Part shown: positions 59,166-64,000 of the stretch, piece after piece
How positions within the stretch are numbered: the stretch's first letter is position 1
Layout: each line of letters starts with the position of its first letter
Source: Nitrospirota bacterium
Lineage (GTDB): Bacteria > Nitrospirota > Thermodesulfovibrionia > Thermodesulfovibrionales > UBA9159
Direction of reading: 5' to 3'
NCBI GenBank assembly: GCA_963699545.1
Contig: CAVOUE010000012.1
Coordinates: 64,001 to 128,000, forward strand
Length of the DNA: 64,000 bases
Notes under the pieces: generated by a model
Database searches by the model: none
What the model was told of the DNA's origin: nothing
Seen by the model: only the letters and a program-made list of their open reading frames with translations
Position numbers and translations under genes: made by a program

Positions 59166-61289
59166 ATGAGCTTCTGGAGCGCGATACAGAGAGATTATAA
59201 GGCCGTTTTCAGGAACGACCCTGCGGCGCGGAACGGAGTGGAGGTGGTCCTTGCCTATCCGGGCTTCCATGCCATCTTCCTCCACAGGATCAACCATGTC
59301 CTCTGGAACCTCGGGATACCGTTCGTCCCCCGGCTTTTCTCCCATATCGCGCGGTTCCTTACGGGTATCGAAATCCATCCTGCAGCGAAGATCGCGCCCG
59401 GTTTTTTCATTGACCACGGCATGGGTGTCGTGATAGGAGAAACCTCAGAGATCGGAGAGGACTGCCTCCTGTATCAGGGGGTTACCCTTGGAGGAACAGG
59501 GAAGGAAAAAGGGAAGCGTCACCCCACCCTCGGCAAGAACGTCGTGGTCGGTACCGGCGCCAAGATCCTGGGCGCGATCACCATCGGGAACTCTGCCAAG
59601 ATAGGGGCTAACGCCGTTGTTCTTGATTCCGTGCCCGACTACGCCATTGTGGTGGGTGTTCCGGGAAAGGTCATCAAGAAGAAGGTTCTCCGGATGATGG
59701 ACGAAGGTGCGGTCGAAAGCCTTTCCCGCGTGCACCTTCCGGACCCTGTGGAAGAAAAGTTCAGGGAAATGGAAAAATATATCGCCGGACTCGAAAAGAG
59801 GATGGAGACACTGGAAGGAAAGGGAGGGAGGATGCGAGTCTACAACACCCTGAAAGGGAACAAGGAAGAACTGATTCCCCTCAGTACGGGCAGGATCGGG
59901 ATGTATGCCTGCGGGGTCACGGTGTATGATCTCTGCCACATCGGTCATGCCCGCAGCGCCATCGTCTTCGACGTGATGCGGAGATACCTTGCTTTCAAAG
60001 GCTTTGAGGTCAAGTATATAAGGAATTTCACCGACATTGACGACAAGATTATCAACAGGGCCAAACAGGAAGGTATTTCCTGGGATGAGGTTGCGAGGAA
60101 ATACACGGCGGAATATTACCTGGATATGGACCGGCTCGGCGTGGGAAGAGCGGATATGGAGCCAAAGGCCACGGAGCATATACCGGAGATTATAAACATC
60201 GTCAAAGGTCTTGTGGAGAAGGGATATGCGTATGCCGTCGATGGCGATGTCTACTTCGAGGTCAGGAAATTCTCAGATTACGGAAAGCTCTCGAAGAGGG
60301 ATATAGAGGATATGCTGGCCGGTGCCCGGGTGGAAGTTGATGAGAGGAAACAGAATCCCATGGACTTTGCCCTCTGGAAGGCATCAAAAGAAGGGGAGCC
60401 GTCGTGGAACAGCCCGTGGGGTCCGGGAAGGCCGGGATGGCATATCGAATGCACTGCCATGTCCATAAAGCATCTCGGTGAAAGCTTCGATATTCACGGA
60501 GGAGGGGCGGATCTGATCTTCCCTCACCATGAGAACGAGCTGGCCCAATCCGAAGCGTATACCGGTAAGCCATTTGTGAGATACTGGATTCACAATGGCT
60601 TCATCACCATCGATAAAGAGAAGATGTCAAAGTCCCTCGGGAATTTCTTTACCATCCGGGAGATCCTGGACACGTTCGACCCCGAAGTGGTGAGGTTCTT
60701 TCTCCTCTCGACACATTACCGGAGCCCTATCGAATTTTCGGACGAGTCCCTGAGGGAGGCGGAACTGTCCATCGACCGGTATTATTCCACGGTGGTGAGG
60801 ATGGAAGATTTCCTGAAAGAAGCGCAGAACAGGGAGAAACAGACCGGGGAAGAACGATCACTGGAGGAGACCCTTGGCGCGTTCATGAACAGATTTCAGG
60901 AAGCGATGGATGACGATTTCAATACCGCCCTTGCCCTTGGTCACCTCTTTGAGCTGATCCGGGAGGTGAACAGGTATCTGGATTCCAAACCTTCAGGCCA
61001 GAATGCGAAGGAGTTCATAGCAAAAGCAAAAGACCTGCTGCGGAAGGCAGGGGGCATTCTCAATATCTTCAACAAGCTGCCCGAAGAATGGAACGACGCC
61101 CTGATGCAGACCAAGAAGATCCCCTACACGAAGCCCGAGATCCTTGACAAGATCAGACAGAGGCAGGAAGCAAGGCAGAAAAAGGACTGGTCAGCTGCGG
61201 ATGCCGTAAGAAAAGAACTGGAGGCACAGGGGGTAATCCTTGAAGACAAAAGGGACGGCACCTCCTGGAAGGTGAAAATCGGCAAGTAG
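59166..61289 (+). CDS. cysS: Serine O-acetyltransferase (CysE) fused in frame to cysteine-tRNA ligase (CysS)
   Basis: N-terminal DPAAR, TGIEIHPAA, IDHGMGV, KRHPT; CysS from M at 59832 with CGVTVY, HIGH, GWHIEC, KMSKS. Confidence 0.92.
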   Translation: MSFWSAIQRDYKAVFRNDPAARNGVEVVLAYPGFHAIFLHRINHVLWNLGIPFVPRLFSHIARFLTGIEIHPAAKIAPGFFIDHGMGVVIGETSEIGEDCLLYQGVTLGGTGKEKGKRHPTLGKNVVVGTGAKILGAITIGNSAKIGANAVVLDSVPDYAIVVGVPGKVIKKKVLRMMDEGAVESLSRVHLPDPVEEKFREMEKYIAGLEKRMETLEGKGGRMRVYNTLKGNKEELIPLSTGRIGMYACGVTVYDLCHIGHARSAIVFDVMRRYLAFKGFEVKYIRNFTDIDDKIINRAKQEGISWDEVARKYTAEYYLDMDRLGVGRADMEPKATEHIPEIINIVKGLVEKGYAYAVDGDVYFEVRKFSDYGKLSKRDIEDMLAGARVEVDERKQNPMDFALWKASKEGEPSWNSPWGPGRPGWHIECTAMSIKHLGESFDIHGGGADLIFPHHENELAQSEAYTGKPFVRYWIHNGFITIDKEKMSKSLGNFFTIREILDTFDPEVVRFFLLSTHYRSPIEFSDESLREAELSIDRYYSTVVRMEDFLKEAQNREKQTGEERSLEETLGAFMNRFQEAMDDDFNTALALGHLFELIREVNRYLDSKPSGQNAKEFIAKAKDLLRKAGGILNIFNKLPEEWNDALMQTKKIPYTKPEILDKIRQRQEARQKKDWSAADAVRKELEAQGVILEDKRDGTSWKVKIGK

Positions 61290-61363: not shown

Positions 61364-61570
61364 TCAAAATACCGTCGAAACAAACTGGTCCATCCTCGTC
61401 GCCGAACCCGTTCGTATCGACTTCCCCACTTCAACTGCCATTATAATTTCCTGCTCATCAATCCCATTTTCGCGGGCCCTGCCCACGTGGTGTTCCACTC
61501 ACCCCTGACAGTTTGAAGCAACAGATGCTCCGACAGCGATCAATGACTTGATTTTTTCATCAAGACCCAT
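61364..61570 (-). CDS. AhpD/carboxymuconolactone-decarboxylase-like selenoprotein (CxxU)
   Basis: MGLDEKIKSLIAVGASVASNCQG-U-VEHHVGRARENGIDEQEIIMAVEVGKSIRTGSATRMDQFVSTVF; TGA 61499-61501; hairpin CGTGGGC-AGG-GCCCGCG 11 nt downstream; RBS GGAGG. Confidence 0.85.
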
Positions 61571-61639: not shown

Positions 61640-61858
61640 TTACAGTGTTCATGAACCTCCGTATCCAATTGTCACCTTGTCTCCTTCCACGATGACCGGA
61701 ACCCTTGCAGCGCCTTTCGTGTATTCAAGCATCTCCTTCAGTTTTGCCCTGTCCGACAAGACCTCGATATAGACTGCGGTATCGCCAAAGGCCGACCTGG
61801 CCGCTTGACTGAAGGGTCATCCCTTCTTGCCAAAGATTTTTATCACTGTTTCCGTCAT
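61640..61858 (-). CDS. Glutaredoxin-like UXX-star-type selenoprotein, two Sec
   Basis: MTETVIKIFGKKG-U-PFSQAARSAF...RVPVIVEGDKVTIGYGGS-U-TL; TGA 61817-61819 and 61649-61651; hairpins GGCC-AGGTC-GGCC and CCGATA-GTT-TATCGG. Confidence 0.85.
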
Positions 61859-61909
61859 CCCATTACCTCCCTTTCAGTTTATAGCTATGGCGCAAGGCCC
61901 GATACTACG

Positions 61910-62446
61910 TTACTCTATAAGGAGAAGTGCGAAGTAGTTCCATTTGCCGTATGTCTCTTTTTTCGTGTCGACCTCAAAGCCGTTGGCCCGCGCTGTTTTG
62001 AAGACATCTATGCCGCAGGCTTCCATAAGGGGCCTGATCCTGAGTTTTTTCTGGTCACCAGTCTGAGACTCACCCTGAGTCTCCGCCTCACCAGAGGGTC
62101 ACGTTGCCCCTTCGGGCCCTGAAGAGAGAGCAGTCATCGCGAATGCCTTGTAAAAGCCCATCTGGTATGCCTCGCCTTCAAGCCTCACGGCGGTCTCGGT
62201 GAGGGTCTTCCCCTTGGAGCCGTTCATGAGGATCGCTTTGCTGTATTCCTTCATCATCTTTTTTGTGCTGTCCGCATCGGGAGCACAGGGGGGATGATAG
62301 GCGTCCTTACCATGGAATGCACAGCCGTAAACGCACTTCCACCTCACCCACTCCTCTACGACAACAGCACTGGTATTTATGACCCTGGCTTTCTCGGCCC
62401 CAAGCTCAAGGGACCTTTTTAAGAGCTGGTCTGTTTTATCTTCCAT
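61910..62446 (-). CDS. DUF2284-like metal-binding protein with in-frame Sec
   Basis: WVRWKCVYGC...PP..., TGA 62099-62101, then the frame continues to the family motif RPLMEACGIDVFKTAR...LLLIE; hairpin GAGACTCA-GGG-TGAGTCTC; RBS AAGGAGGTG. Confidence 0.82.
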
Positions 62447-62474
62447 TCCATCACCTCCTTCACGTGTGGTGGCT

Positions 62475-63410
62475 TCATTTATGTTTAAGCGTATACTCTC
62501 TGCCGTCCCGGTTACGACCTCGGCAGGATGTCCGTCCTCCTGAAAAATACGGACACCGTTCTTCCCTGCACCCGTGGGGATGCTTGACGCCATGATTGCA
62601 AATTATTGATTGGCTTAGGGGCAGCACGAGTCCGAGGCTTTCCCCAAGGTAATTCACCGCCGCATCAAGGGATGTCCTGACATACGCCTTACAGCAGCTC
62701 GGGCCTGTGAGATCGGTTATCGCCCTCGCAACCCTTGTCACCGCCTCCATGGTGATCCTCTGCTCCTCATCTTTACCGCATTTCGAACCCGTGAGGACTG
62801 CAAAACAGGCCCCCATGGCCGGGGCGATGCCGCAGACGCCGCTCAGGCCGCAATAGCCGCCGTGGGCCTGCTTCCTTGTGCGTTTAAAGACCTCCTTGAT
62901 CTCTTCATCCGTCATGCCCTTCACGCCTTCGTTCTTTATCGCGGCCATAAGTGCCCCGCCGGCAATGTACGCATGCTGGCAGCCGAGCATCGGAAGTCCC
63001 GGGAAACTCATGGCAATTTCGGCTATCTCGAAGGGATTGCTTGATGACGTCGAAAATATAGTATCTTCTATGATCCTCATCGAATCCCTGTTGTGACAGA
63101 GGTCGCAGATATAGTGGCCGCTTAGGCAACTTATATGGCCGTGCTCAAGCTTGCCACAGTATATGCACTTCAGCTCCTCTGCCTTGTCGTGATACGTCAG
63201 GGGCGTGCCGCAGACCATACAGTGCTCGGTTGCTTTAGTCTGAACTTCTACGACAGGTTTATCCCCCTGGTTCCCGCTTTCGCAAAGCCCTTCTATGGTC
63301 CCGGTTAACGACTTTGAAGCGCTGTTTTGATGCCCACCAGCATCATCGCCCGGCTCTCAATCTCAGCTGCCATCTTCTCTCAATTCTTTCCTCTCTTTTT
63401 CCTCTGCCAT
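62475..63410 (-). CDS. DUF5714-like Cys-rich protein with probable N-terminal UxU motif
   Basis: RBS AAGGAGG, MAEEKERKELREDGS-U-D-U-EPG... in frame with CMVCG, CIYCG, HYICDLCH, GCQH, YCGLSGVCG, GPSCCK; TGA 63363-63365 and 63357-63359; hairpin TGATGCT-GGTG-GGCATCA. Confidence 0.75.
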
Positions 63411-63422
63411 TGTTTCCTCCTT

Positions 63423-63716
63423 TCATCGGAACAAGAGGGTGTATCCCACCAGCCCCAGGCTCAAGGCAGTCGTCACGTAGAGCATTCTCTTTCCCCACGG
63501 GTCGGCAGATCCCCTCTTCCGGAAAAATGTCCTGTGGTACGCCATTCCCAAAAAAGCAAGGGTTACGAGCACGAAAATCCATCGGTAGCTCACCATCCAG
63601 ACGCCTAGGGTCAGGCTTCCCAGGCCCAAACTGGCCAGGATCAGGGGAAGCTGTCAGGCGAAAAAAGCTACCGCTGAAGAAATGACAGCACCGCTCTTAA
63701 AAAATGACGCCTTCAT
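63423..63716 (-). CDS. MerT-like 3-TM transporter with Sec in TM1
   Basis: MKASFFKSGAVISSAVAFFA-U-QLPLILASLGLG...YRWIFVLVTLAFLGMAYHRTF...; TGA 63654-63656; stems CTTCCC/GGGAAG and GGCC-AGTTTG-GGCC. Confidence 0.75.
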
Positions 63717-63757: not shown

Positions 63758-64000
63758 TTATGTGCGCTTTCGGGTTTCTTTTCTCGGTCCCCACGCCTGC
63801 ATCTTTATCTTTCCCTCCCGAGCGAGTTTGCCAAGGATAAAGAGGACGCTCTCACGATTCAGCTTAAAGTATGAAGCTACCTCGTCAGGGTCCACTTTTT
63901 CTCTGTCGGTGAGAAATACGACTATCTCATTCTCGATCTCTCTCATCCAGTCATTAAAGAGTCCCCGCAGCTCCGGGGTCGAGTACGTGGCCAGCTCATA
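63758..64000 (-). CDS. Hypothetical protein with winged-helix-like C-terminus (5' end off window)
   Basis: YELATYSTPELRGLFNDWMREIENE...VLFILGKLAREGKI, open to the window edge. Confidence 0.7.
   Translation of the reverse strand, partial: YELATYSTPELRGLFNDWMREIENEIVVFLTDREKVDPDEVASYFKLNRESVLFILGKLAREGKIKMQAWGPRKETRKRT

Follow-up and report, generated by a model that had tools for sequence, protein, structure and literature searches.

A putative Sec-Asp-Sec variant of the selenoprotein MbdU with two closely spaced UGA codons and one candidate SECIS hairpin

Can a single bacterial selenocysteine insertion sequence (SECIS) serve two UGA codons? In bacteria, a SECIS is regarded as lying directly behind the UGA that it recodes, at a fairly fixed distance, from which it is expected that a protein with several selenocysteine (Sec) residues needs a SECIS for each UGA. 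The question is raised by a minus-strand gene in a 64,000-nucleotide stretch of DNA from a Nitrospirota bacterium (GenBank assembly GCA_963699545.1, contig CAVOUE010000012.1, positions 64,001 to 128,000; hereafter the window), in which two in-frame TGA codons precede a Cys-rich protein body and are followed by one hairpin. A preliminary description, made from the sequence, had read this arrangement as a UxU motif apparently served by one SECIS in a DUF5714-like protein. Comparison with relatives identifies the gene as mbdU, encoding a fused DUF5714 and DUF2284 selenoprotein whose N-terminal arm normally carries a vicinal Cys-Sec (CU) pair. The window copy is probably a three-Sec variant of MbdU, in which both UGAs of the arm would be decoded as Sec with the help of one shared SECIS. 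The features of the N-terminal region, all on the minus strand, are as follows.

63416 to 63421, minus strand: Shine-Dalgarno sequence AGGAGG with a 5-nt spacer to the ATG, read from the sequence.
63366 to 63410, minus strand: start codon and 15-codon Lys/Glu-rich leader MAEEKERKELREDGS, from the translation.
63363 to 63365, minus strand: UGA1 (codon 16), proposed to encode Sec where the family CU motif has Cys (alignment A1).
63360 to 63362, minus strand: GAT, Asp17, a one-codon insertion relative to the CU-type relatives (alignment A1).
63357 to 63359, minus strand: UGA2, codon 18, the canonical Sec codon of the MbdU family (alignment with 53 CU relatives).
63328 to 63345, minus strand: SECIS-type hairpin with stems 63345–63339 and 63334–63328 and the loop GGUG at 63338–63335 (covariation and consensus).
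63156 to 63221, minus strand: zinc-ribbon-like CxxC...CxxC (C64, C67, C82, C85), from conservation and a weak match to Pfam Zn_ribbon_PriA.

The frame begins at the ATG at 63410–63408, a few bases after the TGA stop (63425–63423) of an upstream MerT-like open reading frame (ORF), and runs through MAEEKERKELREDGS, TGA, GAT, TGA and then EPGDDAGGHQ..., with no TAA or TAG up to the Cys-rich body. UGA1 and UGA2 are thus 6 nt apart with one residue between them. The Shine-Dalgarno sequence is identical in L105, a metagenome contig, while G012, a genome from another genus of the same family, has GAGGAGG at the same site. Scanning of the frame between UGA2 and the ATG at 63218 found zero in-frame ATG, GTG or TTG codons, and the ATG at 63218 is the only downstream start under translation table 11. 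The first ribbon Cys, C64, lies upstream of that ATG. Across 38 sequences there is no variation at C67, C82 or C85, and conservation of C64 reaches at least 90%. A start at 63218 would lose C64 of the conserved CxxC and a complete protein consequently requires passage through both UGAs. Judged from the reading frame, any ribosome that makes the complete protein, or that reaches the Sec18 codon, must have decoded UGA1. The ribosome binding site, the ATG at 63410 and the TGA-Asp-TGA in frame with the Cys-rich body had been set out in the preliminary description with every coordinate and count right, and its start codon is the one from which translation must begin, as no in-frame alternative retains the zinc ribbon.

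Identification of the gene rests on profile matches along its whole length. The NCBIfam model NF045648, ‘metal-binding double selenoprotein MbdU’, has 468 positions and a curated cut-off of 600 bits. Residues 13–293 of the first ORF match positions 5–270 of the model with 410.2 bits, the U-D-U stretch included, and the second ORF matches positions 292–468 with 333.7 bits. Each half in the window falls below 600 bits owing to a split of the gene into two ORFs, while the fused proteins of L105 and G012 score above it at 704.9 and 740.8 bits respectively. A DUF5714-like protein had been suggested beforehand, and the Pfam match bears this out. In the table of a 2026 review (PMC13188914), MbdU is listed with the motif CU and 2 Sec residues, citing Haft & Tolstoy 2025. 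The literal CU is absent from the window, where a TGA replaces TGY and one Asp codon is inserted, giving U-D-U. The remainder of the gene comprises the following features.

62544 to 63071, minus strand: DUF5714 domain, residues 114–289, with many invariant Cys and His residues (Pfam PF18978, E = 5.3e-47, full profile 1–173).
62536 to 62537, minus strand: one extra G, TCAGGAGGAC versus TCAGGA-GAC, a frameshift splitting MbdU (alignment with L105).
62475 to 62535, minus strand: out-of-frame tail of the first ORF, GRTSCRGRNRDGREYTLKHK followed by a TGA stop, with no counterpart in relatives.
61909 to 62535, minus strand: linker and DUF2284 half of MbdU (Pfam DUF2284, E = 3.7e-27; NF045648).

As assembled, the second ORF runs from an ATG at 62446 with its own Shine-Dalgarno-like AAGGAGG. 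The Sec codon of the DUF2284 half is the TGA at 62101–62099, inside the NF045648 match, and is followed at about 62083–62065 by a hairpin of its own (GAGACUCA/GGG/UGAGUCUC, 8 bp, -9.8 kcal/mol) with 23 nt from UGA to loop. The extra G that separates the two ORFs is the sole insertion or deletion in a 1639-nt alignment with L105, and the base is left out in three of three covering runs, which come from three studies. The fused protein is also found in G012 and in all six of the closest database proteins examined; the nearest ones, P0007–P0012, are 84–95% identical. In the same 13-contig assembly, selB is likewise broken by one extra G in a run of G (G000:C3, near 319100; L022), which falls inside the conserved stretch ...VVALSG|DRFIVRRFSPVLTIGGG.... 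That single extra Gs break both mbdU and selB suggests insertion or deletion errors of the assembly, and the split of the window mbdU is probably such an error.

Public gene calls for the family are short at both ends. At least 120 database proteins (the best 120 of the 692 matching at E ≤ 1e-20) cover just 72–87% of the query; the calls stop at the DUF2284 Sec codon, and four of the six examined start at MVCG, within the zinc ribbon. Where the entries are named at all they are called ‘hypothetical protein’ or carry a DUF label, never selenoprotein, and most are unnamed. The arm and variants such as U-D-U are for this reason invisible in protein databases.

Relatives were collected by a scan of one genome per species, from which the best 80 of 148 were kept; with the window and L007 added, 82 sequences were classed by the state of their N-terminus. 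The CU state was found in 53 of the 82 and UxU in two, the window and L025 (the locus in G012). One sequence, L069, is GU. A further 22 have no arm and start just before the zinc ribbon, two are cut at a contig end and two are unusable. By inspection, the armless group consists of 15 sequences without an upstream TGA and seven with a TGA only outside any homologous arm. No Cys-Cys form was found among the 82 sequences. L069 carries Gly instead of Cys before its Sec (A-A-G-U-A-P), and a Cys partner is hence not universal in arm-bearing forms. The preliminary description had named homologs that start downstream of the UGAs with their own ribosome binding site, and have no conserved Cys or TGA upstream, as the observation that would speak against it. 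This is not the case for the 56 arm-bearing sequences, though 22 of the 80 relatives begin just before the zinc ribbon and lack the arm.

Alignment A1 places the Cys of CU on U16 and the Sec of CU on U18, with D17 inserted. Downstream of U18 the gap to the hairpin-coded (D/G)AGGHQ is 4 codons, as it is in the 53 CU relatives. The two positions of the window therefore match a Cys and a Sec position of the family, so that of the two Sec residues proposed beforehand the one at UGA2 corresponds to the family Sec, and that at UGA1 would be Sec where relatives have Cys. The closest relative narrows the comparison further. Over 1040 nt L105 and the window share 94.6% identity; L105 reads TGT-GAT-TGA (C-D-U), with Cys at codon 16, while G012 has TGA at codon 16 and an intact 496-codon fused frame and reads U-D-U. 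The occurrence of Cys in L105 and TGA in the 94.6%-identical window at the same codon constitutes a Cys/Sec pair, the comparative signature of a Sec codon. The alignment of homolog N-termini for Cys and TGA, put forward beforehand as a check, thus returned 53 CU and two UxU sequences among the 82, with C-D-U in L105.

A tree was built from 37 of 42 extracted sequences together with the window (L027, L029, L044, L063 and L099 were dropped); the armless forms are represented in it by L071 and L077 only, and L037 and L083 are cut at contig ends. The window, G012 and L105 form one clade (support 98/95) nested among the CU forms, with L105 sister to the window. On this topology, Sec became Cys once, in L105, or else Cys became Sec twice. 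An origin of the motif as a 6-nt tandem duplication, TGAGAT|TGAGAG, appears less parsimonious than a 3-nt insertion that turned CU into C-D-U followed by Cys/Sec exchange, because L105 has TGT-GAT-TGA.

Further copies of the site were sought in sequencing runs. Run X2 covers UGA1 and has 8 of L105's differences in this part of the sequence. In X2 no T>A was tallied and the sole T>G lies elsewhere, which means that codon 16 is not TGT or TGC, while one T>C, which is not among the differences listed by position, leaves TGG possible. No difference at UGA1 is among those listed for runs X2 and X4, and run X1 covers neither site. The copy represented in X2 is probably also U-D-U.

Conservation between the window and G012 is highest over codons 16–28. 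Over leader codons 1–15, three codons are identical, two are synonymous and ten are nonsynonymous. Over codons 16–28, ten are identical, three are synonymous and zero nonsynonymous; the Asp codon between the UGAs, GAT in the window and GAC in G012, is one of the synonymous ones. Over arm codons 29–63, 19 are identical, four synonymous and 12 nonsynonymous. Leader and arm together have 22 of 50 codons identical. In L105 and G012, too, the leader has 15 codons; it varies in sequence with its Lys/Glu-rich character kept.

The hairpin, UGAUGCU/GGUG/GGCAUCA, has 7 bp with a closing U.G pair and a folding energy of -8.2 kcal/mol, and codes for D-A-G-G-H-Q. From UGA1 there are 17 nt to the start of its stem and from UGA2 11 nt, as had been counted in the preliminary description, and the loop lies at 24 and 18 nt respectively. 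Section 5 of the review cited above (PMC13188914) gives a bacterial SECIS consensus with a loop of 3–9 nt that has G in its initial two positions, an upper stem of 4–16 bp and an energy of -7.5 kcal/mol or lower. The hairpin lies within every one of the consensus limits for both UGAs, its spacings of 18 and 24 nt included. No other in-range hairpin was found for UGA1. A separate hairpin for UGA1 was considered and rejected, since the sole other candidate has -4.6 kcal/mol at 13 nt and lies outside the consensus range; the earlier proposal of one SECIS candidate for both UGAs thereby holds, there being no other hairpin that conforms to the consensus.

As a control for chance, TGA trinucleotides of the window were counted that have a consensus-type hairpin of equal or better stability 16–37 nt downstream. 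Such a hairpin follows 54 of 2551 TGAs (2.1%). Among the 55 occurrences of TGAnnnTGA in the window a hairpin stands in range of both TGAs in one, which is the U-D-U site. A plain minimum free energy fold of the 71-nt region is unexceptional (z = -0.38). With the folding energy unremarkable, it is conservation and covariation that carry the case for the hairpin.

Covariation was assessed on 35 gapless-aligned sequences, drawn from the genes with a UGA-to-loop distance of 17–19 nt and the five in which the hairpin is unclear; neither the 20 of the 21-nt class nor one duplicate was included. Changes on both sides were found in seven of seven pairs, 81% of the cells are paired, and none of 500 shuffles reaches any of the observed values, while pairing with slid partners gives 23–49%. 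These figures are to be read with the sequences being related and the columns also coding. The hairpin-coded peptide varies (DAGGHQ, PAGEQE, PASGQD, ESGGHP) while the pairing persists. In L105, the TGT at codon 16 coincides with a change of CAT to TAT in the hairpin, which replaces His by Tyr and weakens a G-C pair to G.U. Across the 56 arm-bearing genes, the UGA-to-loop distance is 17–19 nt in 31, mainly Nitrospirota with the loops GGUG or GGGG, 21 nt in 20, mainly Desulfobacterota with the loop GGUC, and unclear in 5. The two spacing classes of the family differ by one codon.

Two parts of the machinery for Sec incorporation, selB and tRNA-Sec, are present in the genome. selB matches TIGR00475 with 302.1 bits (cut-off 242), although split by the frameshift described above, and a tRNA-Sec is found with RF01852 at 72.9 bits (gathering score 47).

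Four other explanations of the in-frame TGAs can be weighed against these observations. It is possible, though unlikely, that only UGA2 is a true Sec codon and that UGA1 is passed by low-efficiency, SECIS-independent read-through by a near-cognate Trp, Cys or Arg tRNA, residue 16 then not being Sec or few ribosomes getting through. The hairpin does stand at the canonical distance of the family from UGA2 and not from UGA1, whose spacing is outside the 17–21 nt of the family, yet it is within the consensus range for UGA1 too. Moreover, UGA1 is kept in two genera whose leaders differ by nonsynonymous changes at 10 of 15 codons, and it replaces a Cys that is conserved in 53 relatives and encoded by TGT in the 94.6%-identical contig. 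Sec would keep the chemistry of a Cys position, which Trp or Arg would not. A genome-wide variant code, with TGA as an ordinary sense codon and no Sec, has a negligible probability. Many in-frame TGAs occur within a 2.7-kb gene cluster, as such a code might produce, but each of them falls on a Cys- or Sec-type site of a selenoprotein family already catalogued, with a hairpin downstream. The MerT-like ORF also terminates with TGA, as do the CMD-domain ORF and the first mbdU ORF in their assembled form, and both selB and tRNA-Sec are present.

The two remaining explanations concern the integrity of the window copy. That it is a decaying pseudogene, in which TGT at codon 16 has mutated to a nonsense codon (UGA1) and the frameshift at 62537 is a second lesion, is very unlikely. 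Codon 16 is TGT and the frame is unbroken in the closest relative, L105, and the window differs from L105 in both respects. The same TGA is nevertheless found in G012, whose 496-codon fused frame stays open, and run X2, which is L105-like at 8 differences, is without the T>A at 63363. An essential selB with the same kind of extra G points to assembly indels, and the body of the gene has 23 synonymous against 12 nonsynonymous changes between window and L105. That the TGA of codon 16 is itself a base-calling or assembly error for a true TGT, with C-D-U as the actual sequence, is scarcely credible. The assembly does have indel errors and L105 does have TGT, but the errors seen are indels and not substitutions, the TGA recurs in the independent assembly of G012, and in X2 the codon has not changed to TGT or TGC.

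On the reading of two Sec codons with one shared hairpin, events at the locus would proceed as follows. In this lineage the pair would be Sec-Asp-Sec, the Asp codon having been inserted and the Cys position being encoded by UGA. Translation would begin at the ATG at 63410, and the single hairpin at 63345–63328 would recruit SelB with Sec-tRNA(Sec). The first Sec would be inserted at UGA1, 17 nt from the hairpin and with a slack of 6 nt, and the next, two codons on, at UGA2 with the canonical 11-nt spacing, for which a second SelB ternary complex would be needed. Addition of the Sec of the DUF2284 half would give a product with three Sec residues. We favour, with somewhat less assurance than the three-Sec assignment itself, the view that one hairpin programmes two Sec insertions 6 nt apart, with SelB working over 17-nt and 11-nt spacers and being reloaded within two elongation cycles, and that the product is a three-Sec MbdU with a U-x-U diselenide or chelating site. 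Judged by the CU pair of the family, U-x-U would most likely bind soft metal(loid)s or act as a redox-active dichalcogenide, carried by a mobile acidic arm that serves the Cys/His-rich body. A selenium-dependent gate on translation, proposed earlier, found no specific support beyond that which would be valid for any N-terminal Sec codon.

Several observations weigh against this reading. The window mbdU is frameshifted as assembled, U-D-U is certain in two sequences only (the window and G012), and a profile search of solved structures gave matches at chance level only (E ≥ 0.47). The predicted spacings of the other selenoprotein genes of the organism in the window are 18, 18, 19, 21 and 23 nt, and the 24 nt from UGA1 to the loop is 1 nt beyond them. 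Small displacements of the hairpin sharply cut Sec insertion in E. coli. A review passage places the functional stem-loop of E. coli 11 nt from the UGA. No RNA run was found with the stretch, and the case is made by DNA comparison. Two consecutive recoding events would also be costly. A single event in E. coli is given as 30–40% efficient in a passage of PMC4513850, and if each event here were as in E. coli the yield would be about 10–15% of initiations. By the same token, a real cost of double recoding argues that the second Sec has been selected for.

The genes surrounding mbdU include several further candidates for selenoproteins. The MerT-like membrane protein upstream (97 aa, 63423–63716, minus strand) has an in-frame TGA at 63656–63654 (FFA-U-QLPL) and resembles, weakly, both MerT models and the family ‘MerT/CopZ fusion-like heavy metal transport selenoprotein’; L105 is without most of this gene. 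Further upstream, a gene at 63758–64000 that runs past the window end (L001:2736–3209, minus strand) resembles ‘LULAXC motif selenoprotein TsoA’ with 96.5 bits, below the cut-off of 170. Its in-frame TGA (...VDE-U-IKEC...) is found also in L027 and L105, and it is probably a selenoprotein with UxxxC. Downstream of mbdU, a glutaredoxin-like UXX-star family 1 selenoprotein (61640–61858, minus strand; NF041114, 91.5 bits, over the cut-off) has two Sec codons, one in G-U-PFS near the N-terminus and the other in S-U-T-L-stop, three codons before the stop, followed by a 10-bp hairpin. A short CMD/AhpD-domain protein (61364–61570, minus strand) carries CQGU (CxxU), and 18 nt beyond its UGA stands a 7-bp hairpin. 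On the plus strand, a 707-aa ORF at 59166–61289 looks, when read by eye, like a hexapeptide-repeat serine acetyltransferase-like N-terminal part joined to a cysteinyl-tRNA synthetase, with HIGH-like and KMSKS motifs visible in its translation. DUF2284 is fused to arsenite methyltransferase in another catalogued family. The gene context is compatible with metal(loid) handling, and the chelator of soft metals suggested in the preliminary description would fit both the family name and the neighbouring genes.

MbdU and its N-terminal Sec are already known, and the window gene shares with NF045648 the DUF5714 and DUF2284 architecture, an N-terminal arm in which a conserved hairpin comes after a Sec, another Sec within the DUF2284 half and other selenoprotein genes nearby. 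It departs from the listed form in that the motif is U-D-U rather than CU, which would give three Sec residues rather than two, both here and in G012, and in that 6 nt more separate its first UGA from the hairpin; as assembled, it is also split by the one extra base. Bacterial UxU as such is not new. A passage of Zhang & Gladyshev (2007; PMC1976440) reports it for a rhodanese-related sulfurtransferase of Olavius symbionts, likewise bacterial and described as one in which a ‘second Sec evolved’, which belongs to an unrelated family. TsoB (NF045694, rhodanese/DsbD fusion-like, UxxxxU) is listed as also having two close Sec residues, though its UGAs are 15 nt apart as opposed to 6 and its family is different; none was found in this genome. 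Among eukaryotic proteins, mammalian thioredoxin reductase ends in a Gly-Cys-Sec-Gly arm with a flexible terminal Cys/Sec pair, and selenoprotein L has a UxxU diselenide, a near-vicinal Sec pair. In both, the pair acts as a mobile centre for redox reactions or ligand binding. Both resemblances serve as a lead only, as these proteins have unrelated folds and a SECIS in the 3' untranslated region, with which spacing is no issue.

A search of the literature turned up no paper in which two UGAs share a single bacterial SECIS. Three elements appear to be new: the U-D-U three-Sec form of MbdU, although the primary MbdU paper may already mention such forms; the case for two UGAs 6 nt apart sharing one covariation-supported hairpin; and the alternation of Cys and Sec at the partner position among near-identical strains. 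A conserved U-x-U with one in-range hairpin amounts to a natural test of SelB's tolerance for slack in its spacing and of whether a hairpin can be reused within one ribosome pass. If the proposed decoding is true, the locus would offer a natural system in which spacing tolerance and the turnover of SelB can be measured. The Cys/Sec switching at the partner position of CU among near-identical strains marks both positions as a working chalcogen pair.

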